In this document: positions 1,807 through 42,882 of the stretch, piece after piece
How positions within the stretch are numbered: position 1 is the stretch's first letter
How the letters are laid out: each line of letters starts with the position of its first letter
DNA from: a virus
Taxonomy: Duplodnaviria; Caudoviricetes
Reading direction: 5' to 3' (one strand)
DNA: 64,000 nt
Virus record (IMG/VR): IMGVR_UViG_3300028833_000058
Translations under genes and position numbers: made by a program
The notes under the pieces: generated by a model
The model's database searches: none
The model's input: the letters and a program-made list of their open reading frames with translations, nothing else
Told to the model about the DNA's origin: nothing

Positions 1807-1821
1807 AACATTGTCCTTTCT

Positions 1822-3003
1822 TTAATCCTCGATAGCTTTAGTTAATAACAATACAAGTTCTGGTGCATCTGTCCTTGGGTTAAACAAGTCTAAATTACCT
1901 GAGCAACGTTCAGACCTTGACAACTGAATAAGACAAGAAGCTTTTAATTCTTTAGCTGTCAAATTGTTTAAAGCCTTTACATAATTTAAGATATAGCGTC
2001 TGCAGACTCCATCATCTTTTTCACTGATTATGGCGTGTAAACAAGACATTTGTACTGCCCAAAACTGGTCTTGTGATTCGTTTCTAAAAGGTTTACCATC
2101 AACAAGAATTTCATGCCAATCTTGATATTTTTCTTTGTTCTTGATATATTCAAAAAACTTGGAGCTTAAAGCAGAACCTAATCGACCAGTACAATAAGCT
2201 TGCTTTTCTTGCATTGTGAATTTATCATTAGGTAAATTTAATACTTTACCAACAACTTCCCAAGACCTTGGAGTAACAAATACATCTGTAAACAATGTAT
2301 CTTTTAAACTACCAACCTTATTTTCCATGTTAATTTTATCAAATAATAAGGCAGTGTCTTGAGTTTTTAGAAATGACATAACGTCTAAATTACCGTCATT
2401 GTTCATTTCATAATTTAACCAAGAGTTAAAGTCTACCTTAATATTAAAATGACTAAATCTATTTGCCAAAGGTATACTAAAATCAGATACAGTTGCATTG
2501 AAAGCAGGTGGATTAGAAGATGCTATGATTAAATAATTATCTGGTACTTTATAATCACCTAATCTTCTATCTTGGATAAGTTGAAAGGCAGCGTTCAATA
2601 TGGCTGGCTGTCCTTGGTTCATCTCATCAAGGTGAATTACACCACCAGAAAATCTACCATCTTCTGGCCAAACAGAAGGAATACACCAAACTGTTCTCAT
2701 TTGCCCATCCATTCGAGTAGGAAGAGGGACTCCGACTAAATCTACTGGTTCCTTCATAGATAAACGTATATCACAAATGTCTGGATTCCAATTTTTATCT
2801 GATTTACAACGTTGGTTATTCCATTGTATTACAGCTTGACTCTTACCAAACCCAGGTCCGCTCCACTGCATAATCGAATCGTGTATTTCATAAGCAATAT
2901 CATACATACGCTTGATACCAACATTAATAATTTTACCCGAATCGTTAACAACTGGGTCAATGGTAAATTCTGGCATTAAAAATTTTGAAGTTATATCAGA
3001 CAT
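1822..3003 (-). CDS. MoxR-like/AAA_5 AAA+ ATPase, copy 1
   Basis: Walker A GPGFGKS, Walker B IHLDEMN, LANRF arginine finger, TPRSW sensor II. Confidence 0.88.
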   Translation of the reverse strand: MSDITSKFLMPEFTIDPVVNDSGKIINVGIKRMYDIAYEIHDSIMQWSGPGFGKSQAVIQWNNQRCKSDKNWNPDICDIRLSMKEPVDLVGVPLPTRMDGQMRTVWCIPSVWPEDGRFSGGVIHLDEMNQGQPAILNAAFQLIQDRRLGDYKVPDNYLIIASSNPPAFNATVSDFSIPLANRFSHFNIKVDFNSWLNYEMNNDGNLDVMSFLKTQDTALLFDKINMENKVGSLKDTLFTDVFVTPRSWEVVGKVLNLPNDKFTMQEKQAYCTGRLGSALSSKFFEYIKNKEKYQDWHEILVDGKPFRNESQDQFWAVQMSCLHAIISEKDDGVCRRYILNYVKALNNLTAKELKASCLIQLSRSERCSGNLDLFNPRTDAPELVLLLTKAIED

Positions 3004-4001: not shown

Positions 4002-4418
4002 CTATTCGAAGTCAGCAAAATTGATTGTGGCTCTACGATTCTTAGCCCATGCTTCTTCGTTATGACCATCGTCTACTGGGTTATCTTTACCATAAGATAC
4101 TGTTTCGATTCTATTGCCATCTACACCTAGTGTTTGTAAATAGTCTGATACAGCATTAGCTCTACGTTCACCAAGACCTAAGTTGTATTCACGAGTTCCA
4201 CGTTCATCACAATAACCAGATACAACAACTAAGTTGTCATCATCTTTAATATCCTTAGCTTGTGCTTCAATTGTTGCAACGGCTTCTGGTTTCAATACTG
4301 AACTATCGAAATCAAAATAAACTGTATCTTCAACCTTTGCACTATCACAATTAGGATTAAAAATTGCACAACCAGACAAAGAAGTCATGATTGCAAATAA
4401 AGTTAAAAGTTTTTTCAT
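4002..4418 (-). CDS. pal: peptidoglycan-associated lipoprotein (Pal/OmpA family)
   Basis: Signal peptide with lipobox LSGC; VYFDFDSS, GYCDERGTREYNLGLGERRANAV, VSYGK, AWAKNRRA. Confidence 0.9.
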   Translation of the reverse strand: MKKLLTLFAIMTSLSGCAIFNPNCDSAKVEDTVYFDFDSSVLKPEAVATIEAQAKDIKDDDNLVVVSGYCDERGTREYNLGLGERRANAVSDYLQTLGVDGNRIETVSYGKDNPVDDGHNEEAWAKNRRATINFADFE

Positions 4419-17882: not shown

Positions 17883-18575
17883 CTAAGATTCTTCACAATA
17901 GTCTTCGTAGTCATAACCCCAAACTTCACAAGCAAACTTTCTAGGGTTATCAATAGCTACTTCTTCAACTTCTCCATTTTCAAAGCGTAAGATACCACAG
18001 TTACTACCAATGTCTTCATCAGCGTAGGTTACTTCAATGACTTCGTTTGGTAACGCTTCAGAAAGTTTGATATACACAGGTGAAGGTATAGACCAAGCTG
18101 TTTGAAATTCTATAACATTACCATCAATGTTTGTACTAGAAGCATTCCATTTCGTTCCCCAATTCTCTAAAGCCCAGTTATACCAATTTATTGAACCATA
18201 ACGTTTTAAATTGAAGTAACCAGCTATGTAGGTACGAATATGTGAAATGTTTGTATTAGAAAAATTTTTCAACTTACAAATAGCTTTTACAACTAATTCG
18301 TTTTTCATAATTTTGTCAACGAATTTTACCTGTGTTGTTTTTTCATTATAACACTTTTCAAATTCTTTGATTATAACTAATTCACATACATCTTTTTCTG
18401 AATGTAATCCTTCGTATTCTATGTTTGAATAATCACAAAAACCAGCATCAATGTCAAGGTCTTTTGGTCTAGGTACAATTTTATTGAAATCTACATTACC
18501 TTCTTCATTTACAAGTAAATTCATCAATTCACTCATATTAGAGCAAGTTACTCTGTTTATAACCCAATTTGGCAT
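17883..18575 (-). CDS. DUF1281/YubB-like ferredoxin-fold protein
   Basis: MPNWV-N, DFNKIVP, WYNW..NWGTKWNA, F-TAWS-P, YADED-G-NCG. Confidence 0.8.
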   Translation of the reverse strand: MPNWVINRVTCSNMSELMNLLVNEEGNVDFNKIVPRPKDLDIDAGFCDYSNIEYEGLHSEKDVCELVIIKEFEKCYNEKTTQVKFVDKIMKNELVVKAICKLKNFSNTNISHIRTYIAGYFNLKRYGSINWYNWALENWGTKWNASSTNIDGNVIEFQTAWSIPSPVYIKLSEALPNEVIEVTYADEDIGSNCGILRFENGEVEEVAIDNPRKFACEVWGYDYEDYCEES

Positions 18576-23207: not shown

Positions 23208-23579
23208 TCAAAGTAGATTTTTCATTTTGTATAACACAACTAAATTTTCTAATTCAGATTTAGGAAACAAAACCTCGTTGTAATAACTATCGGATTCTGT
23301 AAATCCTAAACTTTTGAAATAACTTAATAATTTCTTTACTATTTTAAAGCGATTACTACCTTTGGCTTGTGTTACTCCAAATCTGTAAAATTTACAACCA
23401 TCTGGAGATACTGTATACATCTCAAAACGAAATCTTGATGTTCTATCAAGAAATCCAAGCTGCATAGAATCTCTAAAAATCGCTTTTAAGATGTCTGTTG
23501 GTAAGACAAACTGTTCACCATTCATTTTAGCTGAAATTTCTTCATCACTCCAAATCTCATCTAGTTTTATCTTCATCAC
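23208..23579 (-). CDS. hypothetical protein
   Basis: ORF in operon. Confidence 0.7.
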   Translation of the reverse strand: MMKIKLDEIWSDEEISAKMNGEQFVLPTDILKAIFRDSMQLGFLDRTSRFRFEMYTVSPDGCKFYRFGVTQAKGSNRFKIVKKLLSYFKSLGFTESDSYYNEVLFPKSELENLVVLYKMKNLL

Positions 23580-24349
23580 TCATCTCCTTTCACTGCTATA
23601 TCATCAGGAAGTTCAATATACAACTTACCATAAGTAGTTTTTGTTACCTTTAACCCTAATGCTTCCAACTCTCCTTTCATATCTTCACATCTCTTTTCGT
23701 TTTCACTTTTCGGTAACATATATTCTGCAAAGTCAACTTGATATACACAACTCTCTGAATATATCCAAGGTGTCTTGTTATACTTTTCGCAGACAGCTTT
23801 GATTTGATTTCCAAAAAGCTGTTCTAACAACTGACCTTTTTTCTTTTCAAGGTCTAATTGTTTCTCTCGTTCAGTTAATTTGGTAATCTCCTGAATGTCA
23901 TCTAAACGAATAAGTATTTGTTTTAACGCAATGTTATCTATACTCATATCAGGTAAAGCTGAATTGTAAAAAGATTCTATCAGGTTCCCCATACTTTCAT
24001 ATTTGGTTCCTGTAAGAAGTTGAAGTTCATTTACCAAACGGCGCATATTGTAATAGTCACCCGTATCAAGTATATAATCACCATCATTGTTCATTGTGAT
24101 TTGCCAAAAAGAAGTGTTATCAAACCATTCAATAACTTTCCGTGTGCAGAACATTCTATAGATATAAGGCAATTTACACACTTTTGATATACCACGCCAT
24201 CTACTTTGTCTACTTGTATACACAGCTTCAAGACCACCGTTTGTATTGTAGTAAAGATAAAAAGGCTTTTTATATCTGTATATCCTAACACCTTGTTGAT
24301 TAAAAACAAGTTCAGGCTTAATCTTCATTTCATCAATTTGAGCTTTCAT
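23576..24349 (-). CDS. paralogue family A member 1
   Basis: IKPELVFNQQGVRIYRYK..LFGNQIKAVCEKY. Confidence 0.8.
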   Translation of the reverse strand: MKAQIDEMKIKPELVFNQQGVRIYRYKKPFYLYYNTNGGLEAVYTSRQSRWRGISKVCKLPYIYRMFCTRKVIEWFDNTSFWQITMNNDGDYILDTGDYYNMRRLVNELQLLTGTKYESMGNLIESFYNSALPDMSIDNIALKQILIRLDDIQEITKLTEREKQLDLEKKKGQLLEQLFGNQIKAVCEKYNKTPWIYSESCVYQVDFAEYMLPKSENEKRCEDMKGELEALGLKVTKTTYGKLYIELPDDIAVKGDE

Positions 24350-25169
24350 CTCTGTTCTCCTTTACAATGTCTTCTTTAAGTCTAATGTTTCTTACAAGCG
24401 TTAAACGACAAATACTCTTTTTAATCTCATTTTCGTCAATCTCACCAGTAAACCCTAGTTCGTCTAACTCTTTCATTAAAGTATCTTCAATGAGTTTATG
24501 AGCAAAATTATATATAGCAATGTTAATATCACCTCTAGTGTAATATCCTGTGCTCAAATATGTTTTACCATTATCAAACTCTGAAGTAACTAATCCGTGT
24601 TTATTAGCTATATTATTGATTGCATTATAAAAATAAGTATTTATAAACTTATCTTTATTTTGTTTAAGTTGTTCCTCCTTTTCTGTATCAGTAAAATCAA
24701 AAAGTTCTACGAATTTACTTGTGTCGTAAAACTCTCTGCCACCTCCATCAGTTTTAACTGTAGCGTTACGATAGTTTATAACATCACCTTGAACGAATAC
24801 AAATTTACTGAGGTCATAGCCTGTTACTCTTTGTATAGTATCAAATGCAAACTCTCTTATACTGAGTTTACCTTCATACCAAGTAGAATAAATACCTTTC
24901 TCTAGATATTTATTCTTTACTTCGTTTTTGACTATTTCATTTACTCTATCTATTAAGTCTTTGCTCATAACTAATCTGTAGATATAATCACAGGTGAATA
25001 CTCTAGGCTCATAATACTTCCTGTCACGTCTGCTTATAGTAGTATCTTCAATGTGCTTATCTTGATTAGTATAGATATAATGTAACTTCTTATATCTAAA
25101 GATTCTTAAACCGTTATTGTTAAACATTAATTCAGGTTTAATTTTCTCCTCGTTTAGTATTGCTTTCAT
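24333..25169 (-). CDS. paralogue family A member 2
   Basis: MKAILNEEKIKPELMFNNNGLRIFRYK; start at 25169 after AAGGAG. Confidence 0.8.
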   Translation of the reverse strand: MKAILNEEKIKPELMFNNNGLRIFRYKKLHYIYTNQDKHIEDTTISRRDRKYYEPRVFTCDYIYRLVMSKDLIDRVNEIVKNEVKNKYLEKGIYSTWYEGKLSIREFAFDTIQRVTGYDLSKFVFVQGDVINYRNATVKTDGGGREFYDTSKFVELFDFTDTEKEEQLKQNKDKFINTYFYNAINNIANKHGLVTSEFDNGKTYLSTGYYTRGDINIAIYNFAHKLIEDTLMKELDELGFTGEIDENEIKKSICRLTLVRNIRLKEDIVKENRDESSN

Positions 25170-25884
25170 CGGCTTTCTCCTTTTCAAATAAGTCGTCTCT
25201 AGCTTTGATGGAATAAATGGTATCAGTAAAAGCGGTTTTGATATCAAACATACTAACTTTAGTATCAAAGCCTAAATCATTTAGGTCTTTGACGATTGTA
25301 TTGTTGATAAGTTTTTCAATCTCTTTGGTAAAAAAGTTATCACCATAACACCAGCTAACTAAAGCTGAACCCTTTTGAAATCCCTTAAATTCAAAACCAT
25401 ACTTTTCAGCAAGAGCTCTAAAAGTATTGCCGAATAAACCTTCTAGAAGTTTATCCTTATTAGCAGTTCTTTGCCTCTGAAGTTCAAGGTTAGTCAACCC
25501 AGTGTCATCGTGATAATCTGATTCTTTGTAATAGGCTAAAGAATGTACAACATCTGAAAACTTACCCCAGTCAGTAAACGTTATGTCATCATCACGCCAT
25601 AAATGTTTCAAATCTCTAACCTTTTGTCCAGTAACTTTTTCAATGTTATATTCATCTGTGTTATCGTGTAAGTTATCCATACCTTCTTTACTTATACATA
25701 TTCTGTAGATATAATCAGAACAACCTCTGCGTGAATATCTAAACAAATCATTTCTTTTAGTTGAAGTTTTTACTAAACCACCCCAAGCGAAATACCCAAA
25801 GTGTGGATACTTATATCTATAGAGCCTTATACCTTTAATGTCAAATATCAGTTCAGGCTCAATGTTCTGTATCGTTACTTTCAT
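25138..25884 (-). CDS. paralogue family A member 3
   Basis: IEPELIFDIKGIRLYRYK..LFGNTFRALAEKYG. Confidence 0.8.
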   Translation of the reverse strand: MKVTIQNIEPELIFDIKGIRLYRYKYPHFGYFAWGGLVKTSTKRNDLFRYSRRGCSDYIYRICISKEGMDNLHDNTDEYNIEKVTGQKVRDLKHLWRDDDITFTDWGKFSDVVHSLAYYKESDYHDDTGLTNLELQRQRTANKDKLLEGLFGNTFRALAEKYGFEFKGFQKGSALVSWCYGDNFFTKEIEKLINNTIVKDLNDLGFDTKVSMFDIKTAFTDTIYSIKARDDLFEKEKADESNTKRGEN

Positions 25885-26062
25885 TAGCTTTCTCCTTCTG
25901 CTCTTTAATATATTTCACTAAAGCCAATACGCTTTCGTGAAGGTTCTTATTGAGTTCAGCTTGTTCAAGAAGTTGTTTTTTAGTTTCAAGCATATAATCT
26001 TCAAACTGTTTTTCAATTTTCTTGATTTTGTCCAACAATCTCAATTCATTTGTGCTTAACAT
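25859..26062 (-). CDS. small coiled-coil protein
   Basis: AGGAG RBS. Confidence 0.65.
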   Translation of the reverse strand: MLSTNELRLLDKIKKIEKQFEDYMLETKKQLLEQAELNKNLHESVLALVKYIKEQKEKANESNDTEH

Positions 26063-26673
26063 CGTAGGTCTCCTAAGAAGTCATAATCTTGTTTAATGTA
26101 ATCATACACCGTGCCAAAGTCATACTCATATATTTTACAGAGCATACTTATTTCGTCTTTTCTAGGTTTCTGTTCAAGACATACACGCATAGCTCTGAAC
26201 AACTGAAACATCTTCTTGTTGTCCTTATACTTTTTACGTAACTCTTTATCAATACAAGTAGAGTAAGCGTTTTTAATTCGTATTATGTCTTTAGATTTTA
26301 GAGCATTAGCAAAGTCATCAACTAATGATTCAACATCACCAGTTTCTTTGCCTTCGCTATCTCTCATTTCTACACGGTGATACATAGGCATACAGTTCCA
26401 ACGATTGAAACACACACCATGACGAAAAACTCTAGGTTGTTCATAAGTTCCGTCTTCAAAAGGTAAAGACTTTAAACTAACATCAAACGCTGTATAAACG
26501 TGTCTATTAGTTGTAACAGACCAGCCATTCCAAAGTCTTATGTATTTTCCTTCAGGTGTCATTTTAACTACATCAGTTGAATAGGACTGAAGTATTTTAG
26601 TTCCGTCACTATATGTCTTTACCCAAGCTTCCATATAGTTAACACGTTTTTTAGATACTAATTCAGCAGTCAT
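26056..26673 (-). CDS. hypothetical protein
   Basis: L-SY-T-V and WS-TT-RH phage motifs; strong RBS. Confidence 0.75.
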   Translation of the reverse strand: MTAELVSKKRVNYMEAWVKTYSDGTKILQSYSTDVVKMTPEGKYIRLWNGWSVTTNRHVYTAFDVSLKSLPFEDGTYEQPRVFRHGVCFNRWNCMPMYHRVEMRDSEGKETGDVESLVDDFANALKSKDIIRIKNAYSTCIDKELRKKYKDNKKMFQLFRAMRVCLEQKPRKDEISMLCKIYEYDFGTVYDYIKQDYDFLGDLRC

Positions 26674-27433
26674 TGTCGTTCTCCTTCATTAACAAATCAT
26701 CGCCAAGTTCAATGTTTATCATAGGTATCTTGATTGTATATTTATGATACCTATTTTCACATGTAGTTGCCTTAAGACCCAAATCTGTAAACTTCTCTAT
26801 TACATTTTGTATATGTTCATTTATAATCTCTTGTATATCATCACCATCTAAATAGATACGTTTTTTATCCATCCAATGGGCTACATGCATTTTGCTATCT
26901 TTTGTAATAGCTTCTATTTGCTTTCCAAAGAGTTGTTCTACTATTTTCCGTTTTGAGCTTTCCTGTTGTAGCATTTTCTCCTTTTCACTGATAGTTATTA
27001 TTTCTTTCATATCACTTTTAAGAAATATAACTTTGTTAATGTTAATGTTTTGTTTTGTGTCATTTTCAAATTCAAAGCTACCATAACGCTCTGAAATATA
27101 ATCAGCTTTAAACGTGGTCAACATCTCAAGTTGAGAAAGAAGTGTAACCTCATCATTTATACTGACTTTACCGTTAGACCATTTTGTTATGCAATTAGTT
27201 TTTTCAAGCTCATTAATAACACAATCGTCTAAATGTATTCTGTAAAAACAAGACACTTTAAACAATCTATCTGTAGTTTTAGTTCTTGGTACCCTAGTCT
27301 TATATGTATAAAACCAGTCGTTGTTATAAAAATACAGGTATAACGGTTGGTTATACCTGTATACTTCTATACCATTTTGATTAAACACAAGTTCGGATTT
27401 AATCTTTTGTTCGTCAATCTTTATAGTGGACAT
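26663..27433 (-). CDS. paralogue family A member 4
   Basis: IKSELVFNQNGIEVYRY..LFGKQIEAI. Confidence 0.8.
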   Translation of the reverse strand: MSTIKIDEQKIKSELVFNQNGIEVYRYNQPLYLYFYNNDWFYTYKTRVPRTKTTDRLFKVSCFYRIHLDDCVINELEKTNCITKWSNGKVSINDEVTLLSQLEMLTTFKADYISERYGSFEFENDTKQNININKVIFLKSDMKEIITISEKEKMLQQESSKRKIVEQLFGKQIEAITKDSKMHVAHWMDKKRIYLDGDDIQEIINEHIQNVIEKFTDLGLKATTCENRYHKYTIKIPMINIELGDDLLMKENDNDC

Positions 27434-27444
27434 TTGATTCTCCT

Positions 27445-28854
27445 TTAGTCATCATCCTCATAATCAAAGCGGTCAGCCTTGATAAGTTTCGGTGGTATGA
27501 AATTCTTGTTGTTCAACACTAACCATACACATTTACAATAGTCAAAACGTGTTGTTGTGTCGTTATGCAATCTATCTTCAAAGTCACTGAATACTATAAG
27601 CGTATCAGGTCTTTCACTTCCATAATGTTTCTTTACCCATTCAAAGTTAGATGAAATGTCAGTTCCACCATAACTATTGAGCTTAAAGTCACCAATGATA
27701 TTTCTACTCCTTTCAGTGTAGGTGACTAATGTATCTTCGTGGACTTGAGTTGAGAAACACCAAGCGTCTATCTTGAATTGCTTAAACTGTGAAGCAATAG
27801 ATAACAAGTGATTCATAAAGCAGTTTAATTGTTTATCTGATATAGAGCCAGACGTATCAATAGCAACCGCAACCTTCAATATTTTTCTCTTGTCAGGACT
27901 TGGTAATATAAGACCTCTATATACACCAGACCTAGCAGGTTTCTTCCAAGTGAAGTCAGCTTTAGCAAAGGACTTGATATACTTTCTTAAAGCCTGTCGC
28001 CAATTAAATCTTACAGGTTTCAATACAAAGTTCTTTAATCTCTCTAAAGCAGTTGAGTTAGATGAATAGCCAGATTCACTTAAAGCAGTTTCTATTTGTG
28101 CTTTTAAGTCACTCATTTCCATTTCATTCAACTCAACTGGCATATGCTTATCAAGTTCAATTTGTCCTTTACCTTTTCCATTACCATCTCCATCTTCAGG
28201 CTTACCTTTACCGTTAGCCTTACCTTTACCATCACCTCCTTTAGATTTCTCTTTTGAATCGGAGTCAGTTTTGGAATTTTCGCCGTTACTTCCTTTGTCC
28301 AACATATCTTTCAAGGACTCTACAAGTTGTTGCATTTCGTCTATATTATCTTTAGACTGTTCAAGTAACTCTTTGTAGATTTCTTCAGCTGTCTTATTGA
28401 TATACTTGTCATCATACAATACCCATTCAGGTTTCCTACCAATAGGACTTGAAGTTCCATTGTTTTTATTGTTATACAGCAGACTATTGATTTCATAGTC
28501 AGTTGCTATATTCCAAAGTTCGTTTAGACATTGACCTTTAATAGAAGTATCTTTGAAGTCTATACCAAGTGCTTTACCTCTATCCCAAGTTAAGCCAAGG
28601 ATATGACTTAACTCGTGGGCAATAATAAAAGTCATTTGCTTTTTATCAATAGGGGTTTTAGCATATTGTTTGTTCTGCTCTTCAACACCAAACTCATTTA
28701 TGAAGATACATTTACCATCTGTCCAAGCACAATATGGCAAACTTGTATCATTAACCACCTTGTAACCAATTCTAGCTACAAGGTGGGCATATACTGGACA
28801 ATTAAACATCATATCAATTATGCTATTGTCCACCAATTCTCGTACATTAGACAT
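27445..28854 (-). CDS. HExxH metallopeptidase-like + VWA-like protein (DUF2201-type), copy 2
   Basis: AHELSH, WNIATDYEIN, G/K-rich linker, IDTSGS, GGTD. Confidence 0.85.
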   Translation of the reverse strand: MSNVRELVDNSIIDMMFNCPVYAHLVARIGYKVVNDTSLPYCAWTDGKCIFINEFGVEEQNKQYAKTPIDKKQMTFIIAHELSHILGLTWDRGKALGIDFKDTSIKGQCLNELWNIATDYEINSLLYNNKNNGTSSPIGRKPEWVLYDDKYINKTAEEIYKELLEQSKDNIDEMQQLVESLKDMLDKGSNGENSKTDSDSKEKSKGGDGKGKANGKGKPEDGDGNGKGKGQIELDKHMPVELNEMEMSDLKAQIETALSESGYSSNSTALERLKNFVLKPVRFNWRQALRKYIKSFAKADFTWKKPARSGVYRGLILPSPDKRKILKVAVAIDTSGSISDKQLNCFMNHLLSIASQFKQFKIDAWCFSTQVHEDTLVTYTERSRNIIGDFKLNSYGGTDISSNFEWVKKHYGSERPDTLIVFSDFEDRLHNDTTTRFDYCKCVWLVLNNKNFIPPKLIKADRFDYEDDD

Positions 28855-28867
28855 TGTTTTGTTCTCC

Positions 28868-30019
28868 TTAGCCTAATACAGCAGTTGCTACAAGGCTTAA
28901 TAAGTCTTTAGCGTCTGCATTTAAGTTGAATAAGTCAGGACGTTTGACTAACCTTGGTGAGTTGCACAAACGAGTTATATTCATAGCCTTGTTAGGATTA
29001 CTACTTAAAGCTCTAGTTGCCTTGATAAAGTTCAAGACATACTTTCTAACTTTAGTATCATCAGGCTCTTTGTTAATGGCTTGCATACAGTTAAGTTGTA
29101 CACACCAGAAAGCCATTTCATCCTCATTCTTAAAGTTCTCACCTTTCTCAAGAATAGATTGCCAAGATTGATATTTCTCACTATCCTTGATGAAGTTAAA
29201 TAATCTTGAGGATAGAGCTAACCCTAATCTACCTGTGGCATAGTATTGTTTTTCCAACATTGAGAAGTTAGGTAAGGCTATCAATTTCTCAATGACTTCC
29301 CAAGAACGTGGTGTAGGTATAATGTCTGTAAAAACACCATCTTCATCAACACTACTACCAATTCTGTCCTCAAAGGCTTTGGTATCAAACAATAATGAGC
29401 TATCCTGTGTTTTAAGGAAAGCTAATACCATAGGATTACCATCGTGAGCCATTCTGTAATTAAACCAACTGTCAAAGTCAGGTTTAACGTTAAAGTGACT
29501 AAACCTATTACAAAGAGGTAAGCTCAATTCTGTAACAGTTGAGTTATAGCAACTAGGATTAGCCGCTGCTACGATTACATACCCATCAGGTACTTTATAA
29601 TCGCCTAACGCTCTATCTTGAATCAACTGGAAAGCTGCGTTCAAGATTGAAGGTTGACCTTGATTTATTTCATCAAGTAGTATTGTGCCACCCTCATAAG
29701 TGTCATCAGGCCACATAGACGGAACAGCCCAAACTGTTTTGTCCTTGCCATCAATTCTAACTGGGATAGGAATACCAACCATATCCACAGGCTCTTTCAT
29801 TGACAACCGAACATCACAAACTTTCGGGTTCCAGTTCTTATGTTTGGCAACCTGTTCTTGATTCCATTGATAAACACCTTGGGATTTACCAATACCAGGT
29901 GCACCGTGAAACATAACTGAATCTTTCAAAGCTAAAGCCATATCAAGGATTCCTTTCATCCCAGGAATCTTCTCACCATCTTTAGTTTTGTTATCAATCG
30001 TAATCTGTTGTACCAACAT
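28868..30019 (-). CDS. MoxR-like/AAA_5 AAA+ ATPase, copy 2
   Basis: GAPGIGKS, LLDEIN, LCNRF, TPRSW. Confidence 0.88.
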   Translation of the reverse strand: MLVQQITIDNKTKDGEKIPGMKGILDMALALKDSVMFHGAPGIGKSQGVYQWNQEQVAKHKNWNPKVCDVRLSMKEPVDMVGIPIPVRIDGKDKTVWAVPSMWPDDTYEGGTILLDEINQGQPSILNAAFQLIQDRALGDYKVPDGYVIVAAANPSCYNSTVTELSLPLCNRFSHFNVKPDFDSWFNYRMAHDGNPMVLAFLKTQDSSLLFDTKAFEDRIGSSVDEDGVFTDIIPTPRSWEVIEKLIALPNFSMLEKQYYATGRLGLALSSRLFNFIKDSEKYQSWQSILEKGENFKNEDEMAFWCVQLNCMQAINKEPDDTKVRKYVLNFIKATRALSSNPNKAMNITRLCNSPRLVKRPDLFNLNADAKDLLSLVATAVLG

Positions 30020-30030
30020 GGTAGTTCTCC

Positions 30031-30855
30031 TTAATCAGTTGAAGTTGTTGTATCGTCATCTGTTTGTTTGGTGGTCAATTCTTCTTTGAATTTAATACCT
30101 TTGATTAAATCCCCATTGATATTAACATCACCAGCAAACTTACCTGTCAAACCTAATTCACCTAAATCTTTGAGTATGTTATTTTCTACAAACTCTTTAA
30201 CAAGGTCAGTTAGGACATTCTTTCCACTTCGCCAAGATATATTCATAACGATTTCTCCATCTTGACGAGCTTGCCAAAGTTTAACACCATATTTTTCTTC
30301 TATGGCTTCAATTTGGGCTTTCATAAGTGTAGTTATTAAATTGTATGTGTTGTCATTCCTTTCCCTTCTTTTTTCCATAGGTGATAATGTTACCACTTTC
30401 TCACCCTCTTCAAGTTTAAATAGCTCACAACTTTGAGTTTCATTTTTAAAGTTATAAGTGCCTATCTTATCAGGCTCACCATACACATTAACAAGTCTGG
30501 TATTGTATGGTGTAGAAAATTCACTCAAATCGTAAGGACTAGCCGCTTGGATTAACCGTTGTATTTTATCTTGGTCATACTCCCAGTTTGTATAATACTT
30601 ACTCTCATTCTTTACACCAACAGCCTTTTTGATTCCTATAATGAAATCACTTGTAAAGGTCATATAGTAGTAGTATTTAAACTTCAAGCACTCTGTTTCT
30701 CGCCAACCAATAGGTGTGTGTGAACTAGTAACTCTTGTTATATGGTCAACATCATTACCTCTTTTTCCTATATACACATATTGAGTTTTCTTGACTTTGT
30801 ATAGTGTCATCTGCTCATTTTGTGCAACGATTTCAGGTTTCACTTCTTTAGTCAT
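30031..30855 (-). CDS. paralogue family A member 5 (divergent)
   Basis: VKPEIVAQNEQMTLYK..LMKAQIEAIEEKYG..ILKDLGELG. Confidence 0.72.
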   Translation of the reverse strand: MTKEVKPEIVAQNEQMTLYKVKKTQYVYIGKRGNDVDHITRVTSSHTPIGWRETECLKFKYYYYMTFTSDFIIGIKKAVGVKNESKYYTNWEYDQDKIQRLIQAASPYDLSEFSTPYNTRLVNVYGEPDKIGTYNFKNETQSCELFKLEEGEKVVTLSPMEKRRERNDNTYNLITTLMKAQIEAIEEKYGVKLWQARQDGEIVMNISWRSGKNVLTDLVKEFVENNILKDLGELGLTGKFAGDVNINGDLIKGIKFKEELTTKQTDDDTTTSTD

Positions 30856-32030: not shown

Positions 32031-32933
32031 TTAATCTTCGTGGCTTGCTAATTTCAAAAGATAATCAGCCGCTTTTTGTGCCATACTACAAGCTGTTATT
32101 ATTGATTTTGGTTTGTCTTGTAAAGTCTTTATCCAACTTTCAATATATTTTAAATTGTTTTGGCTAAACATATAAGTATGACCAAATTCTTGAGCTATAA
32201 AACCTGCACCAATATCAGCTACAAGCTCTTCAAAGGCATAGCTCTCACTTCCAAACCTACCACTTAAATCTCTGTTGAGTCTTGATTTAGCACCAGACCA
32301 ATGCACCGTTTCGTGGCAAGCTGTCGGTATATATTCTTCAAGCATATCCTTGTTATATTGAGATAAGCTAGGAAGTTCAATAACATCTCTGCTCGGTATG
32401 TAGCAAGCGTGTCCGTGTCCTTCCGAATATACTGCACCTATTCTGTCAAGATAATTGTCTTTAAACAATCCAATCTTGTGCAAGATATTTTCGTCAATAG
32501 GCTCTTTGGTTTCTTCTTCAGGTTTATAATCCTGTAACTGGCACTCATTAAATACCGTATAATATCTCATAAACGGTATCATTTTTTCAATGTCATCACC
32601 ATTTTCATCTTTTTCATCAGTCTTAACCTTAACCTGTTTCCAAAAGATGATGTTTGTGCCTTTTTCACCCTTTTTAACAAACCGTTTAGCTTTCTTCCAT
32701 TGGTCAAAAGTTCCCCATTTGTTAGAGGTATATCCTTTTTCTTCACTAACGAAAGCAAGCAATACCATATTGAATCCTCTGTATAACTTCTTGCTTTCAA
32801 AATTAACACTTAAAGTATTAGAAGAAAAGAACGGTTTTACCCAGTGTCCTTTTCCTTTAACTTCTTCAAGCATAGCGATAAATTTATCAGCTGTGCTCTT
32901 AACAATTTGTTCTGTAACGTTTACCATTGTCAT
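32031..32933 (-). CDS. ardC: ArdC-family antirestriction protein (ssDNA-binding + zincin-like)
   Basis: YRGFN, WGTFDQW..VKKGEKG, YTVFNECQ, HETVHWSG..RLNR, YAFEELVA, YIESW. Confidence 0.9.
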   Translation of the reverse strand: MTMVNVTEQIVKSTADKFIAMLEEVKGKGHWVKPFFSSNTLSVNFESKKLYRGFNMVLLAFVSEEKGYTSNKWGTFDQWKKAKRFVKKGEKGTNIIFWKQVKVKTDEKDENGDDIEKMIPFMRYYTVFNECQLQDYKPEEETKEPIDENILHKIGLFKDNYLDRIGAVYSEGHGHACYIPSRDVIELPSLSQYNKDMLEEYIPTACHETVHWSGAKSRLNRDLSGRFGSESYAFEELVADIGAGFIAQEFGHTYMFSQNNLKYIESWIKTLQDKPKSIITACSMAQKAADYLLKLASHED

Positions 32934-35059: not shown

Positions 35060-35109
35060 GTGGTTTGTAATATTATGCCCTAATGTATTTGAAAGGACTT
35101 ATAGTAAAT

Positions 35110-35385
35110 ATGACAGAAAAAGAATTAACGCTTGAAGAGCTTGAAGCTAAGTTTAACAGAGCGATGGAACTTCATGATGCAGAAATATATTACAATGGTT
35201 CTATTATGGCATTAGAATCATTGAGAAGAACTTTTATTGAATCTAAAGATAAAAGTATTACGGTTAAAGAATTAGTAGAAGAACTTATACCTGGTTTTAT
35301 TAAAGTTGTAATTGAGGAACATGAAGCTTTAGTAAAAGAAATAGAGGGTAAAAGTTATGTAAAAGATAAAGCTACTCTTAATTAA
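35110..35385 (+). CDS. paralogue family B member 1
   Basis: YYNGSIMALESLRRTF..LIPGFI..EEHE. Confidence 0.75.
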   Translation: MTEKELTLEELEAKFNRAMELHDAEIYYNGSIMALESLRRTFIESKDKSITVKELVEELIPGFIKVVIEEHEALVKEIEGKSYVKDKATLN

Positions 35386-35392
35386 AATTATA

Positions 35393-35713
35393 TTGGAAGA
35401 AAGGACTACGGTGAATATTATGACTAAAGAAGATTTAAATGAAGATACACCTACAGAAAAAGAAGTGAAAGAATTAAAAGAATTAACGACAATTATATTT
35501 TATGATGGATATACCAGAGGATTAGAAGATTTTGCTAAAGCGTTAAATATGGCAGCAGCAAGAATTGGAAAGAATAATTTACCCGTAGACTTAATTGTTA
35601 ATGAACTTATACCAGCTCATGTTAAATGTGTATGTAAGAAACGTGATGAAATATTAAAAGAAGTTGATAATGAAGGACAATGTTTAACAGTAAATAACGT
35701 TATTCTTAATTAA
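35393..35713 (+). CDS. paralogue family B member 2
   Basis: FYDGYTRGLE..NELIP..KRDEIL; start uncertain. Confidence 0.7.
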   Translation: MEERTTVNIMTKEDLNEDTPTEKEVKELKELTTIIFYDGYTRGLEDFAKALNMAAARIGKNNLPVDLIVNELIPAHVKCVCKKRDEILKEVDNEGQCLTVNNVILN

Positions 35714-35741
35714 TTTTGTATTTGGAGAAAGGGTTTGCGCT

Positions 35742-35987
35742 ATGAGTGATAAATATAACATAGAACTTCATGATACAGAAAAGTATTATGAAGGTTATAT
35801 TGATGCATTGGAGTACATAAGAAAAGGGTTTATTTATGACCAAAATGGGATTGGAATAAAAAATTTGAGCGTCAATAAATTAGTTAAAAGGACTATGCCT
35901 AGAGAAATTGAATGGGCAAAAAAAGAACGTGATAAAGCTATTGAAGAAATCAAGAAGAAATATGCTACATATATAATGTGTAATTAA
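35742..35987 (+). CDS. paralogue family B member 3
   Basis: YYEGYIDALEYIRKGF..MP..ERDKA. Confidence 0.72.
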   Translation: MSDKYNIELHDTEKYYEGYIDALEYIRKGFIYDQNGIGIKNLSVNKLVKRTMPREIEWAKKERDKAIEEIKKKYATYIMCN

Positions 35988-36010
35988 GTTACGGAAAGGA
36001 TTTAACTACA

Positions 36011-36319
36011 ATGGAAGAAAAGAAGAAAGTTACTAAAGAAGATATACTTGAATTAGTTGGTGATTTACAAAAGAATGTCATGAAGAATGATATTGTTAAT
36101 TACCATAATGGTTCTATTCATGCATTAGAATCTTTAAGACATATGTTCATAGAAGGTGATTATGGAAAATATATTGCACGTGAAGAATTAATCAATGAGA
36201 TTATTCCTAATTGTATCCAAATAGTCATAGAAGAACGTGATAATTTGTTAGCACGTGTTAATGAAGACGAAAATGTTGAAGATATCGCTAAACCTGAAAA
36301 ACCAATATTGTACAATTGA
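36011..36319 (+). CDS. paralogue family B member 4
   Basis: YHNGSIHALESLRHMF..IIP..EERDNLL. Confidence 0.75.
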   Translation: MEEKKKVTKEDILELVGDLQKNVMKNDIVNYHNGSIHALESLRHMFIEGDYGKYIAREELINEIIPNCIQIVIEERDNLLARVNEDENVEDIAKPEKPILYN

Positions 36320-36623: not shown

Positions 36624-36851
36624 GTCTTCGATGTTTATCGTGTACATCTCTTCTACATAATCATTGCAAGGGGGTATACAGAAATCTACCTTGACAGTAA
36701 TTTGACCACCACCAGCGTTAGCAATACTACCAATGAACATTGGACAGTTTCTATAGTAACTACTTTTCACTTTTTCTCTTATTACTTTTTCTATGGATTC
36801 GTAAATCTTAGTTCTTAACGTAAAATAAGTGTAAACGTCTTCTTTATTCAT
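36609..36851 (-). CDS. hypothetical protein
   Basis: End of minus-strand operon. Confidence 0.6.
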   Translation of the reverse strand: MNKEDVYTYFTLRTKIYESIEKVIREKVKSSYYRNCPMFIGSIANAGGGQITVKVDFCIPPCNDYVEEMYTINIEDLQNC

Positions 36852-37266
36852 GAATTTTCTTTCCCTCTATAGTGAATTCTTGGTTATTATTTAATGTTAT
36901 CAATACTTCATACGTTTTGTCAATCAAATCTTTTGGTATCCGTTTGTCATTCTTTTTACTCTTATAGGCTCCCAATTGTAAAGACAACAGAAAAATTCTA
37001 TCGTCAGTTATGTTTAGGTGCATAGGCACTAAAGTCTCATTTGTTATTCGTGGTAAACTTTCGTGAAATGAAAATGTTGTTAAGCATTGAAACATTTTTG
37101 TATATACGAATAGACATATATTCATGCTGTCGTCATGTATAGAAATGTGAAAATGTTCATTGGCAAAAATTATTTCTAGAGTATATCCATCTTTTGTGGA
37201 TATACATTCAAAACCAGCTTCGTTTCCGTGTTCACGAATAGTATCAAATTTAAATGGATTGTTCAT
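36844..37266 (-). CDS. paralogue family C member 1
   Basis: NITDDRIFLLSLQLGAYKSK..IP..YEVL..NNQEF. Confidence 0.75.
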   Translation of the reverse strand: MNNPFKFDTIREHGNEAGFECISTKDGYTLEIIFANEHFHISIHDDSMNICLFVYTKMFQCLTTFSFHESLPRITNETLVPMHLNITDDRIFLLSLQLGAYKSKKNDKRIPKDLIDKTYEVLITLNNNQEFTIEGKKIHE

Positions 37267-37699
37267 TGAACCTAACTACCGATTCTTCATTTGAGATAAC
37301 CTCAAATTCTTGATTATTAGACATCATTATTAATAACTCATAAGCTTTATTAATCATGCGATTTGGAATACGTTTGTTAGTTATGTTACTTTTATAAGCT
37401 CCTAACTTAATACTCTCTGTTAATATTTCGTCATTTGTGATGTTTGGACAAGACGACTTGAAGTTATTGTATGTATACAAATTGTTTTTGAACTCATAAG
37501 AAAAAATTGTGAAATGATTTTCTCTTATAAAAAGACATTTGTTTATACTTTCATTTTTACTGTTTAGTTTATTATTAAGCGATAGCTTGTAATCACCATC
37601 TATATCGTAAAAGAATAAAGACGAGTAGTTATTTGTGTCATATATCCTACACGATTTGTCAAATGTAATTGTCTTTACCATTGAAATAAACCCAGGCAT
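37250..37699 (-). CDS. paralogue family C member 2
   Basis: NITNDEILTESIKLGAYKS..IP..YELL..NNQEF. Confidence 0.75.
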   Translation of the reverse strand: MPGFISMVKTITFDKSCRIYDTNNYSSLFFYDIDGDYKLSLNNKLNSKNESINKCLFIRENHFTIFSYEFKNNLYTYNNFKSSCPNITNDEILTESIKLGAYKSNITNKRIPNRMINKAYELLIMMSNNQEFEVISNEESVVRFNEQSI

Positions 37700-38114
37700 T
37701 GTTGTTTAAACTTACTTTAAATGGTTGTTCGTTATAAATACAGTTTAATAATTCATAAGACTGATTTATAATTTTTTCTGGAATAGCTTTACCATCTGTT
37801 TTTCTCTTATAAGCTCCAAGATACACAGATAATATAAAAATGTCATCGTTGTTTATGTTTTTATCTATAACCTTATTTGTTTTATTTAACTCTGGACTTG
37901 TCATTAAATGATTATGTCGTAAACTATAATAAAATAAAGTTGAATTCGATGAGTTTATATCTATCATACTTATAGTAAGATTTGTTTCATCATGTTGAGC
38001 GTTAAAACATATAGCGTATCCTTCTTCAACTGTTGTAAAATAGAACGATACGCTATACTGTCTAACACTTGTTCTACTAATATCATCAAATTCAAAACTT
38101 TTATAATCAATCAT
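37659..38114 (-). CDS. paralogue family C member 3
   Basis: NINNDDIFILSVYLGAYKRK..IP..YELL..NEQPF. Confidence 0.75.
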   Translation of the reverse strand: MIDYKSFEFDDISRTSVRQYSVSFYFTTVEEGYAICFNAQHDETNLTISMIDINSSNSTLFYYSLRHNHLMTSPELNKTNKVIDKNINNDDIFILSVYLGAYKRKTDGKAIPEKIINQSYELLNCIYNEQPFKVSLNNNAWVYFNGKDNYI

Positions 38115-38799
38115 TGAATTTTATCAACTCTTTATAAGGTGCTGATATCTTAGATAACTCTTCACGCATCTGGGTTAAATCCTGAAAGTCGTTTCTGTCA
38201 TCCATTGTGTATCTAACGTAATAAGCGATGACTAATTGTCTGGCTGTCAATTTACCATGACCTTGTTTTTTGGCCAATAAAAGAATCTTTTTAATTTTAT
38301 CTTGAGTAGTTAACTCTTTGTTTAACTTGATTAGATTATCCAACATGTAATCATCTTTTTTCAAACAAGCTATAGAAAAATCTCGTTCTTTCTCACTTGC
38401 TTCAAATTGACCATTCAACGCTGCTCTTTGCTCTTCGTCACGTAAGTATTTTTTAACTCTATTTATGATTACCTTAGTGAAATTCTTATTCCATTGCTCA
38501 CTGTCAGTGTTTCTTAACATATTAAGATTTGAAAAAGAAGAAGTTACATAATCTTTGACACGTTCTTTTGGGATGTACCAATATTTTTTATTATGAGCAC
38601 TTGTTCTTTCCATGACTTGTGGAAACTGTACTTTCACGCTGTCTTTCATACGTACAGCAGTTCTTTTGGATACAGCGAATCTTTTCATGATGTCCTCTAT
38701 GGTAACACCTTTTTCAGAATCCTGCATCCATAGAACTAAATCGAGTAAAACTCTAGTCTTTTTATAGAAGATATCATTCAATTGTGTATCTGCTTTCAT
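38107..38799 (-). CDS. DriD/WYL-regulator-type N-terminal wHTH fused to a family D domain (no WYL domain)
   Basis: LLDLVLWMQDSEKGVTIEDIMKRFAVSKRTAVRMKDSV..FPQ..KYWYIP. Confidence 0.72.
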   Translation of the reverse strand: MKADTQLNDIFYKKTRVLLDLVLWMQDSEKGVTIEDIMKRFAVSKRTAVRMKDSVKVQFPQVMERTSAHNKKYWYIPKERVKDYVTSSFSNLNMLRNTDSEQWNKNFTKVIINRVKKYLRDEEQRAALNGQFEASEKERDFSIACLKKDDYMLDNLIKLNKELTTQDKIKKILLLAKKQGHGKLTARQLVIAYYVRYTMDDRNDFQDLTQMREELSKISAPYKELIKFND

Positions 38800-39124
38800 C
38801 GAATGGAACTTTCTTTAAAATGTTTTCTCTGTATTCTGGATGAGTTTTCTTATACTGTTCCTCATCTTTTACCATTTTATTTAACTTTGCTTGAATTTGA
38901 TTTACAGTTTTTCTATCTTTTCCTCTTTGGTTATACATTCTATCGTAAGCAACAACAACTTCTTCTAAAGTAAGTGAATGTATACCCCTATCTTTAGCGA
39001 TATCAAACAAGTGATAAATTCTGTCACCAAATACATCTTTTCTGATTATTTCAAGTCCAAGTTTACGTTTTACATCTTGGGTTAAATCACTTGAATCAAA
39101 GATTGACTCGTCATAATTTTTCAT
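38774..39124 (-). CDS. family D putative winged-helix protein
   Basis: RIYHLFDIAK..SLTLEEVVVAY. Confidence 0.7.
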   Translation of the reverse strand: MKNYDESIFDSSDLTQDVKRKLGLEIIRKDVFGDRIYHLFDIAKDRGIHSLTLEEVVVAYDRMYNQRGKDRKTVNQIQAKLNKMVKDEEQYKKTHPEYRENILKKVPFDESRYTIE

Positions 39125-39143
39125 TTTAATATCCTTTCAAAAA

Positions 39144-39821
39144 TTAGTATTCTAACAATGTAAATGTACCAACAGCACCTTTTACTCTTACGATACATTT
39201 GTTTTTAGCACTTTTTATTTTATTTGTTTCTAAGTAATATATCTTGTTTGCAATTTGATGTTTCGTCTTTTGGCCATCTCTACCAAAAGAAGTATAAACT
39301 TTGTAATAAGCTGCTGTAACTTGGTCTATTGTTAAGGATTTCATGTTGAACATCTCAGCAAGGTCAAACAAATTAAAAATCTTGCTTGTAAAATCATCTT
39401 CTACTTCTCTTTTCAATCCAGCTCTGATTTTTATATCAACATCAGAAATGTTTGTCATATCGAATAGATTGTCAGGTGCATCAAAATGTTTATCAAGTTT
39501 AATTTCTACTTTCTTGTTTTCTTCAACTAATGTATTGAACATTTCTTTTTTAGACTGTACTTTTTTATTAACAATCTCTTTTACTTCACTCTTTGAGATG
39601 ACATTAGTTTTAGATTTATCATTTATGACCTTGTTTTCATCCTTGCGTGGTTCAATGGATTTAACTTTCTTTGGTTCTGGAATAATATCTCTAGCAAGTG
39701 CATCTGGAAAAACAGCAATTTCGTCTCTTTTCCTTCTGAAAAAAGGAAATGAATCAAAACATCCTTCTATCCTGTTTAGCAAACCACTTTCATCTTTCGT
39801 TTTCGACATAGTTTTTGGCAT
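39144..39821 (-). CDS. family D putative winged-helix protein with long N-terminus
   Basis: KIFNLFDLAE..SLTIDQVTAAYY. Confidence 0.7.
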   Translation of the reverse strand: MPKTMSKTKDESGLLNRIEGCFDSFPFFRRKRDEIAVFPDALARDIIPEPKKVKSIEPRKDENKVINDKSKTNVISKSEVKEIVNKKVQSKKEMFNTLVEENKKVEIKLDKHFDAPDNLFDMTNISDVDIKIRAGLKREVEDDFTSKIFNLFDLAEMFNMKSLTIDQVTAAYYKVYTSFGRDGQKTKHQIANKIYYLETNKIKSAKNKCIVRVKGAVGTFTLLEY

Positions 39822-40927: not shown

Positions 40928-41434
40928 CTACTTTTCCAATATCTCAAAGAACAATCTACCATCTGTTAATTGACTGTGAACAAACCAAGATGTATTAAAC
41001 CAGCAACTTCCTTTACTATTAAAATCACATCTTTTATCCAAAGCAATTAGACCAATACCATTTTTAAACAACTTGTGTCTCTTGGTTCCCTCAAGTGCAG
41101 TCATAGGAAGTAATAAGGCAAATGGTTTTTTCAATTCATAACACCTTTTTATAATATCGTCCTTCAAGCTGTAGGGCGGGTTCGTAACAATCATGTCATA
41201 TCCTTCTGGTTCGCATTTGAAGAAATCTTTACCTTCGTCTTTATGACTGTAAATAATGTCGTAACCAAAAGAAAGTAGTTCTTGAACAATGTTACTTTCT
41301 AATGTATCACAAGGACACCATACAGTTTTGACGTTATTTGGAATGTAATTTAAAAGTGGTTTGATAGCATAAGCTGGTGTATAGAGCTCATCGAACGCTC
41401 CTCTTTTAATGTAATCAAGCATTGCCTTTTTCAT
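40928..41434 (-). CDS. phage DNA amino-methyltransferase (NPPY)
   Basis: DELYTP, VWCPCD, GKDFF, IVTNPPYS, FALLLP. Confidence 0.8.
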   Translation of the reverse strand: MKKAMLDYIKRGAFDELYTPAYAIKPLLNYIPNNVKTVWCPCDTLESNIVQELLSFGYDIIYSHKDEGKDFFKCEPEGYDMIVTNPPYSLKDDIIKRCYELKKPFALLLPMTALEGTKRHKLFKNGIGLIALDKRCDFNSKGSCWFNTSWFVHSQLTDGRLFFEILEK

Positions 41435-42161
41435 TTATCCTATCCTCCGCTATATTAAAATAAGTTTCATTAAGTTCAATACCAATAAAATCTCTATTTA
41501 ATTTTTTACAAGCAACACCAGTAGTTCCGCTCCCCATTGTGAAATCAAGCACTATGTCTCCTTCATCGGTATAGGTCTTTACCAAATATTCCATTAGTTC
41601 CAATGGTTTCTGTGTTGGATGTAAATTACTTGTTAGAATATCTCTTTTAAATTGAATAACTTGTAGTGGATAACGTAAACCGTTATCTTTATATTGGTTC
41701 GGTTGCTTATTTCCAGAATCCACTAATAAACCTAATTTACCATTTTTAATTTTATTGGTTCTCAATGGTCCATCATGTTTAATCATCTGTGGATTATAGG
41801 TTGGTTGTTTGTCATAGAACACACAAATGTTTTCAATGACTTTTGCTGGTCTTTTCTTTAACTGAAATATATTTGTAGCTCTTTCTTTCTGCCAATACCA
41901 GTCATATTTATAGGCAGTCAAATTACTTTCTCTTAGAGCAGATGAAAACGGTTCGTTGCCAAAAAGACATACAACAGCGTCATCTTTTTTAATTCTGTTT
42001 ATGCAATCCCACATTGGTACAAACGGTATAGCTTTATCCCATGAACATCTTGTAATTTCGTAAGGTATATCTGTGATAACGGCATCGACTTTAATCCCAT
42101 CTCCAATGAGAGTATTCATCACTTCTATACAATCACCATTGTAAAGCTGAATATTACTCAT
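41415..42161 (-). CDS. site-specific DNA methyltransferase (N6/N4, beta class)
   Basis: LYNGDC, ITDIPY, HPTQKP, VLDFTMGSGTTG, FIGIE. Confidence 0.9.
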   Translation of the reverse strand: MSNIQLYNGDCIEVMNTLIGDGIKVDAVITDIPYEITRCSWDKAIPFVPMWDCINRIKKDDAVVCLFGNEPFSSALRESNLTAYKYDWYWQKERATNIFQLKKRPAKVIENICVFYDKQPTYNPQMIKHDGPLRTNKIKNGKLGLLVDSGNKQPNQYKDNGLRYPLQVIQFKRDILTSNLHPTQKPLELMEYLVKTYTDEGDIVLDFTMGSGTTGVACKKLNRDFIGIELNETYFNIAEDRINEKGNA

Positions 42162-42882
42162 TTTCTATCCTTTCTTTTGCGATATCAAAATAAGTTTTAT
42201 TAGCTTCGATACCTATAAAATTACGATTTAATCTTTTAGCAGCAACCCCTGTACTACCAGAACCCATACAAAAATCTAACACTGTATCACCTTCGTTTGT
42301 AATCATTTCGATACATCTTTCCATAAGAGCAACTGGTTTTTGAGTTGGGTGATTAACTTTTTCTTTACTGTTATGAGGTAACGCAGGTATATCAGACCAT
42401 ACATCAGACAACGTAATTCCATCTTTTAAGTAACCTGTTGTATATTCTGGTCTTTTACTATCAACTTTAATCTTAATGTTGTTAAATGTATAATTCTTTT
42501 TATCTTTAGTGTAATAACAAATCGGTTCATAACCAGATGCCAATGCTTTACCTCTTGTGTTGTTAAAAGCTCTTTTTCTTGACCAGATTATAATTCGTTT
42601 TTCGTAAAACGTTTTATCTAGCTCATAACAGATTTGACGATTATATTGTCGTCCTGTAAAAATTAACAAAGAACCATCTTCTTTAAGTAAATTATAACAA
42701 TAGTTAAAACAACTGTTACACCAACCAAGGTAATCAGATAAATCTCTCCATTGATTATCCCAGTCATTTTTAACAACTTGAAAATAAGGTATGTCTGTGA
42801 TAACAGCGTCAACTTTTACATGGGTATTCATGTCTTTTAAAATTTGATAACAGTCGACATTATAAAGTTTTATATCACTCAC
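42154..42882 (-). CDS. site-specific DNA methyltransferase (N6/N4, beta class)
   Basis: ITDIPY, SDVW, HPTQKP, VLDFCMGSGSTG. Confidence 0.9.
   Translation of the reverse strand: MSDIKLYNVDCYQILKDMNTHVKVDAVITDIPYFQVVKNDWDNQWRDLSDYLGWCNSCFNYCYNLLKEDGSLLIFTGRQYNRQICYELDKTFYEKRIIIWSRKRAFNNTRGKALASGYEPICYYTKDKKNYTFNNIKIKVDSKRPEYTTGYLKDGITLSDVWSDIPALPHNSKEKVNHPTQKPVALMERCIEMITNEGDTVLDFCMGSGSTGVAAKRLNRNFIGIEANKTYFDIAKERIENE

Follow-up and report, generated by a model that had tools for sequence, protein, structure and literature searches.

MoxR-type AAA+ ATPases act together with partners that carry a von Willebrand factor A (VWA) domain: in both RavA-ViaA and CbbQ-CbbO, an ATPase ring is paired with a VWA partner whose metal ion-dependent adhesion site (MIDAS) engages the client. 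To our knowledge, no family of exchangeable adaptors accompanies these cellular systems, and we know of no client or adaptor for any of the phage pairs in which a MoxR ATPase is encoded with a zincin-VWA protein, although such pairs are an established and widespread phage unit. Group 2.2 jumbo phages have a MoxR and metallopeptidase-vWA pair for which Iyer et al. 2021 (PMC7824862), with reference to the MoxR-vWA system of Acidianus two-tailed virus, proposed a role in virion assembly. It has also been described that the MoxR gene of phage Bas54, bas54_0063, is required to overcome a predicted defence system, DS-28 (preprint 10.1101/2025.11.20.689424). Examined here is a pair of this kind encoded on a 64,000-nucleotide stretch (the window) of the uncultured virus record IMGVR_UViG_3300028833_000058, where it lies among five diverged paralogues (p1 to p5) of a protein family with no recognised relatives. 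On this 148-kb IMG/VR record, given a completeness of 62% by CheckV, the window spans positions 71605-135604 and is taken from the minus strand. With the paralogy, orphan status, distribution and turnover of the family and the identity of the pair observed directly, its function is what we infer: tentatively, the paralogues are taken to be stand-alone host-interaction effectors that may serve counter-defence or host takeover.

The pair consists of AAA1 (28868-30019, minus strand; 383 aa), a MoxR-like AAA+ ATPase, and VWA1 (27445-28854, minus strand; 469 aa), a predicted zincin metallopeptidase with a VWA domain. AAA1 matches phrog_1297 (E 3.3e-58 over 320 residues) and possesses Walker A (GAPGIGKS, residues 39-46) and Walker B (ILLDE, residues 113-117) motifs; it scores 21.2 bits against Pfam AAA_5, just below the cut-off of 22, and E 0.035 against bpMoxR, and a search of PDB sequences showed no relative at E <=0.01. 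Homologues of AAA1 were identified in 713 cultured-phage records, those of phiTE, CR3 and CBB among them, in which they are often annotated as MoxR, the best tblastn matches, likewise bearing that annotation, being to Vequintavirinae at ~28% identity. VWA1 matches DUF2201_N (61.7 bits, cut-off 23.2), DUF2201 (49 bits, cut-off 26.4) and phrog_1314 (E 1.2e-67). Its HExxH motif (H80, E81 and H84) and its MIDAS motif DxSxS (D333, S335 and S337) are invariant in an alignment of 62 sequences, and the VWA1 profile aligns the MIDAS strand to integrin I-domains. A K/G/D-rich low-complexity insert of ~60 aa (residues ~175-230) lies between its zincin and VWA domains.

A second pair is encoded at 499-3003 on the minus strand (AAA2, 1822-3003; VWA2, 499-1806), again matching phrog_1297 and phrog_1314 and with no family member nearby. 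Its proteins are 53% (AAA2) and 34% (VWA2) identical to those of the first pair; the Walker motifs of AAA1 are conserved in AAA2, while VWA2 is without the insert. An OmpA-domain protein is encoded beside this second pair (4002-4418, minus strand). The order of ATPase gene followed by VWA gene is kept in all related loci. A quick tree places VWA2 among the VWA proteins of related phage records that hold a single pair (G005-G012), to which the second pair of the window is the vertical orthologue, whereas VWA1 falls in a separate clade with metagenomic homologues P0043 (95%), P0044 (68%) and P0045; the genome thus holds two lineages of one machine.

In domain content the locus resembles that of the group 2.2 jumbo phages, where an AAA_5-type ATPase is likewise followed by an HExxH zincin protein with a C-terminal MIDAS VWA domain. 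The published description names no flanking paralogue family (PMC7824862), whereas here two pairs of different lineages occur, one of them amid five members of an orphan family. The likeness to RavA-ViaA and CbbQ-CbbO extends to the MoxR ATPase and its VWA partner, but the cellular VWA partners are without a zincin domain. The Bas54 protein is a phage MoxR-type ATPase from the Vequintavirinae, as are the best matches of AAA1, but it is only distantly related; its partner in the screen has no known function and is encoded at another place in the genome, and a paralogue array was not reported (10.1101/2025.11.20.689424).

The five paralogues are encoded on the minus strand on either side of the pair: p5 (30031-30855; 274 aa) directly upstream of AAA1, p4 (26663-27433; 256 aa) directly downstream of VWA1, followed by p3 (25138-25884; 248 aa), p2 (24333-25169; 278 aa from the ATG at 25169, which is preceded by a Shine-Dalgarno (SD) sequence) and p1 (23576-24349; 257 aa). 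MAFFT alignment recovered an N-terminal motif (KIKPELVFN..G.R.YRYKKP) and a C-terminal motif (LT..EK...LFGNQI.AI.EKYG ... K.L..LGL) in all five copies, and both are conserved across 35 family members. The copies are 22-43% identical to one another (p2-p5 are 22-31% identical to p1), and mean pairwise identity falls from 31% over the N part to 15% over the middle (27% gaps), rising again to 26% over the C part. Pairwise BLASTP connects all five, most pairs at E 5e-22 to 1e-7 (database size 1e6), the two weakest pairs (E 0.38) being bridged via p2 and p3, and a profile built from the five copies matches exactly these five places in the 148-kb record. With the family profile, p5 scores E 1.5e-71. 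Together with the 28 cluster representatives to which the family profile is limited among 1.84e9 proteins, these links place the similarity far beyond chance. The first 75 residues are basic (pI 8.6-9.9), while the remainder is acidic (pI 4.6-5.3). The first-pass annotation, made from the sequence alone, had described five reading frames flanking an AAA+ and an HExxH-VWA gene and had considered them paralogues with shared ends and variable middles; the positions of the frames, the motifs, BLASTP links and identity profile of the paralogues, and the PHROG and Pfam matches and active-site motifs of the pair all agree with that description.

It had also called the family unknown, and the searches concur. 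All 28 representatives are unnamed and derive from Logan or ENA metagenome assemblies. None of the five paralogues matched Pfam, PHROGs, PADLOC or NCBIfam at E <=0.01, and no curated family recurred in more than two of the 35 members when these were scanned singly. PDB sequences gave no family match and the ESM Atlas no usable match. Among 50,697 phage records, megablast of the region and tblastn with three probes (p1, P0017 and P0023) returned nothing, as did scans of IMG/VR with the family alignment A1, P0004 and P0012 and of JGI metagenomes with A1.

In a confident AlphaFold2 model of p1 (26 sequences; pLDDT 83.7, pTM 0.75), an N domain rich in beta strands is followed by a middle with little order, a helix of 30 residues and, at the C-terminus, a small alpha/beta domain; a separate model of the N domain gave a pLDDT of 80.6 and a pTM of 0.76. 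Foldseek comparison of the whole p1 model with the PDB and BFVD showed nothing at E <=1e-3. With an exhaustive aligner, whose typical best Z for unmatched models is 7-8, structural matches of the C domain reached Z 7.5 (HAD cap and EpsL-like alpha/beta), which is background level. The best Z of the N domain alone, 2.8, is unusually low against that typical value, and none of 48,161 chains reached Z 5; if the model is right, the fold of this domain is unrepresented among solved structures. Kinship to the kinase N-lobe was considered for the N domain, as about half of the weak matches are kinase-like, yet these show Z 2.0-2.7 with a root-mean-square deviation of 4-5 Å and the assignment was rejected. 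A protein with a DUF1281_C domain (Api92-like, ferredoxin-like) is encoded at 17883-18575 on the minus strand; it was likewise dismissed as a relative of the family (hhalign probability 0.2%).

In the family tree, each of the window's paralogues groups with orthologues of its own: p1 with P0002 and P0010, p2 with P0001 and P0006, p3 with P0003 and P0011, p4 with P0004 (53% identical) and p5 with P0005 and P0013. The copies form the sister pairs p1+p4 and p2+p3, with SH-like supports of 0.95-1.0. From this grouping it follows that the duplications are old and that every copy has been maintained. Multigene families that expand and contract under host pressure are known from the 'genomic accordions' of poxviruses and from the multigene families (MGFs) of African swine fever virus. 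Tandem paralogues, a variable region, copy-number differences between strains and a conserved scaffold with variable parts are traits in common with the family described here, but its duplications are old, with orthologues for each copy, and the host is bacterial.

Strain variants of the array were also identified. The region occurs in sheep-gut metagenomes, from which it probably derives, and short contigs of 100% identity to all of its parts were found in sheep-gut metatranscriptome libraries of another study, where stretches left uncovered by the RNA-library contigs carry no meaning. A contig of run X5 joins position 26678 to 27438, skipping 759 nt so that p4 is exactly deleted at an 8-nt microhomology, AAGGAGAA. 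This sequence is the ribosome-binding sequence ahead of both p4 and the next gene (26663-26690 and 27425-27447, minus strand), and it seems that recombination takes place at such repeated ribosome-binding sites, adding or removing gene-sized pieces. In run X6, a 9-kb contig matches the region colinearly at ~93-95% except for three replaced stretches. One of these is the middle of p3 (25214-25655), and at the junction of the p3 start and the adjacent 67-aa gene (25734-25890) the contig carries 879 nt in place of 155 nt, long enough to encode a further protein of ~240 aa, perhaps a sixth paralogue. That the copies are mere remnants of duplication, drifting and now without a function, is very improbable: their high divergence and the loss of p4 in a natural variant would suit such decay, but none of the five reading frames is broken and all have strong ribosome-binding sites, each copy has conserved orthologues in other phages and the motifs at both ends persist across the 35 members.

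Each protein begins with a basic, beta-rich N domain, whose fold is unrecognised, and ends with a small alpha/beta C domain; a hypervariable middle and then a long helix lie between the two. According to the effector reading, the conserved N and C parts would form a scaffold and the variable middle a surface binding a different host target in each paralogue. The genes belong to a hypervariable accessory string in which genes with near-identical ribosome-binding sites seem to be gained, lost and swapped through recombination, and which also houses ArdC and the extra MoxR-like AAA+/zincin-VWA pair. Co-inheritance of the family with the AAA1/VWA1 block would then reflect shared residence in one accessory module and would not prove a common machine. 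The ArdC-like anti-restriction gene (32031-32933, minus strand) matches ArdcN (E 4.7e-31) and MPTase-PolyVal (E 7.5e-34), both above the cut-off; it shares the strand of the array and is placed three genes upstream, close to the head of that gene string. One known anti-defence gene as a neighbour is weak evidence for an anti-defence island; the counter-defence role of the Bas54 MoxR gene makes such a neighbourhood plausible. The first-pass annotation had aimed the system at host defence proteins, a target suggested only by the neighbouring ArdC gene and by a single preprint, which concerns a distantly related MoxR protein.

Related IMG/VR records were reached via a distant family alignment (A6) and the capsid protein. 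They comprise G005 (237 kb, 98% complete), G011 (203 kb, complete; capsid protein ~55-57% identical) and the fragments G006-G010, G012 and G014. Core genes (structural and replication) of the window's genome (G000) and G005 are 35-72% identical, whereas the stretch from 3 to 49 kb of the window has, besides its AAA+/VWA genes and capsid gene, just two small genes with counterparts in G005. Over these 46 kb counterparts are thus all but absent, which shows that the array lies in an accessory region of high variability. The relatives have one AAA+/VWA pair each, orthologous to the second pair of the window, within a conserved string (cl0-cl1-cl2-AAA-cl4-VWA-...-cl6-...-cl7-cl9), with the capsid gene further on and on the other strand. 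Full-length family members number five here, two each in G005 and G009 and one each in G006, G007 and G010; those of G005, G006, G007 and G010 include copies 5-8 kb downstream of the ATPase gene, and the two of G009, likewise 5-8 kb downstream in the gene string of the pair, are diverged and in tandem (hhalign 92%). No full-length member was found in G008, G012 or the complete G011, in which a 280-aa gene after the VWA gene and nearby genes were tested as hidden members and did not belong to the family. On these sequence comparisons, the family is confined to a clade of ~200-250-kb uncultured jumbo phages of the ruminant gut (sheep and cattle).

A smaller gene, cl7 (112-163 aa), was identified downstream of the VWA gene in seven of seven close relatives and is absent from the window's genome. 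Its product shares with the family the C-terminal helix and alpha/beta domain (hhalign 94%, E 1.3e-7), with the motifs ..FW...NG.....L.KYGL and LEKE..ITG.K. Unlike the full-length members, cl7 of G005-G012 is single-copy and is without the beta-rich N domain and the variable middle.

Links between the family and the VWA1 lineage beyond the window come from metagenomic contigs, on which co-location was deduced from identical contig sizes, not from sequence, and is accordingly indirect. VWA proteins of the P0044 cluster, in the VWA1 clade, share an 11664-nt contig with P0008/P0021, a 15876-nt contig with P0217 and a 25714-nt contig with P0032, so that the block of VWA gene and family members appears to persist in a second phage type. 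By the same measure, three paralogue types (P0010, P0014 and P0226) lie on one 9699-nt contig, P0090 and P0024 on one of 18982 nt, and a 246,429-nt contig with the VWA1 and p1 types (P0207/P0227) is probably the full genome of the window's phage type. What the family and the VWA1 lineage show is co-inheritance, which is not proof of function; as all the linked genomes are kin, their linkage is not independent evidence of a functional tie.

These data bear on the proposal, put forward in the first-pass annotation, that the paralogues are exchangeable adaptors or substrates of AAA1/VWA1, their N and C parts docking to the machine and the middle picking a host protein, for example a defence protein, for remodelling or cleavage. 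We consider this rather unlikely. It would account for the position of p5 and p4 at gaps of 11-13 nt from the pair, for family members downstream of the pair in the same gene string of relatives, for the conserved cl7 in that string and for the recurrence of the P0044 type of VWA (68% identical to VWA1) with family members in a second phage type. The HExxH and MIDAS motifs of VWA1 are intact, MIDAS being the usual ligand-binding site of VWA domains, and the Bas54 MoxR gene is an anti-defence gene. However, the pair is found without the family at 499-3003 of the window, in the complete G011 and in the 713 cultured-phage records, where the three tblastn probes were negative, and without full-length members in G008 and G012. 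Every family-bearing contig with recovered context also carries a pair, but the pair is universal in the clade and the second copy of G005 lies 54 kb away from it. Moreover, a natural variant does without p4, the copy adjoining VWA1, the linkage among these related genomes may reflect shared ancestry only, the same-contig evidence derives from equal contig sizes, and the window holds several other tandem families. An acidic C-terminal tail was considered as a MIDAS ligand, but the codons for its K-E-N or K-G-D-E residues are those of the AAGGAG ribosome-binding site of the next gene; as the tail motif is mostly this site, the idea of a docking signal is weakened. Complex prediction of VWA1 (62-row alignment) with p4 (35-row alignment) scored 0.00, which counts as evidence neither way.

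A broader form of the proposal joins the family and the AAA1/VWA1 lineage in one undescribed ATP-driven zincin/VWA system with interchangeable two-domain adaptors, five of them here and, in the relatives, cl7 with one or two members. We regard this as doubtful; were it true, the phage could use a single engine to remodel or cleave several proteins of its host, defence proteins among them.

The assembly role that Iyer et al. 2021 (PMC7824862) put forward for these two domains in jumbo phages would make the pair a virion-assembly chaperone or protease and the family its assembly cofactors, or structural or scaffold proteins that it processes. In the relatives, the string with the pair and the family ends beside the major capsid gene, and VWA2/AAA2 lie 6 kb from the capsid gene in the window. 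Such a role in morphogenesis is nonetheless improbable for the family. Structural or assembly parts do not usually come and go or vary in copy number (0-5), have hypervariable middles or, like p4, undergo natural deletion. The strand of the capsid gene is the other one, none of the structural families in PHROGs is matched and the neighbours, ArdC and small ORFans, are typical of non-structural regions.

Stand-alone effectors are therefore favoured over adaptors or substrates of AAA1/VWA1, with assembly factors and decaying duplicates ranked lower. Several points weigh against this preference. Neither a fold nor a motif pointing to a binding or inhibitor role was found in the family. Its constant closeness to AAA+/VWA pairs fits a functional tie at least as well, as does the occurrence of cl7 in all seven close relatives. 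Old, singly conserved paralogues are less typical of an arms-race 'accordion' than recent bursts are, and, as DNA can occur in RNA libraries, the metatranscriptome contigs are no proof of transcription.

The genes of the array are tightly packed, in the order 168-aa gene, p5, AAA1, VWA1, p4, 205-aa gene, 67-aa gene, p3, p2, p1 and 123-aa gene. Every gene from 31375 to 23208 runs on the minus strand, and neighbours are no more than 13 nt apart or overlap by up to 32 nt; VWA1 begins 13 nt past the stop codon of AAA1. An AAGGAG(AA) ribosome-binding site lies 5-8 nt ahead of each ATG. For p5 the SD sequence AAAGGAG precedes the ATG at 30855 and none precedes 30888, so the former is the start codon, as first annotated. 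This spacing fits a single operon, the arrangement originally predicted, in which translational coupling is possible. A scan for promoters and terminators found no sites in excess of shuffled sequence. Two genes from outside the family split the array. The 205-aa gene (26056-26673, minus strand) matches at its N-terminus phrog_5643 and phrog_4264, both of unknown function, and is not a family member (hhalign probability 0.5%); G009 has a homologue of 35% identity shortly downstream of its VWA gene. The 67-aa gene (25859-26062, minus strand) is an open reading frame with an SD sequence for which no homologues were found.

Other tandem paralogue sets were identified elsewhere in the window: four genes of ~100 aa (35083-36319, plus strand), three of ~150 aa (36844-38114, minus strand), two of ~235 aa (41415-42831, minus strand) and a partial tandem pair (38774-39821, minus strand). 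With at least three such sets besides the array, duplication is a general habit of the accessory region. A double glycosyltransferase resembling GtrB (Pfam or PHROG match) is encoded at 55404-57035 on the plus strand.

The locus provides a concrete candidate partner set for a phage MoxR/zincin-VWA pair, in the form of a family without sequence relatives beyond one phage clade and with an N domain that has no structural neighbour. The strain variants, with one copy deleted in one and one middle swapped in the other, point to the variable part as the probable working end of these proteins. Even if the family is functionally unrelated to the pair, it is a clean case of a multigene family that is old and has been maintained within the accessory region of gut jumbo phages.

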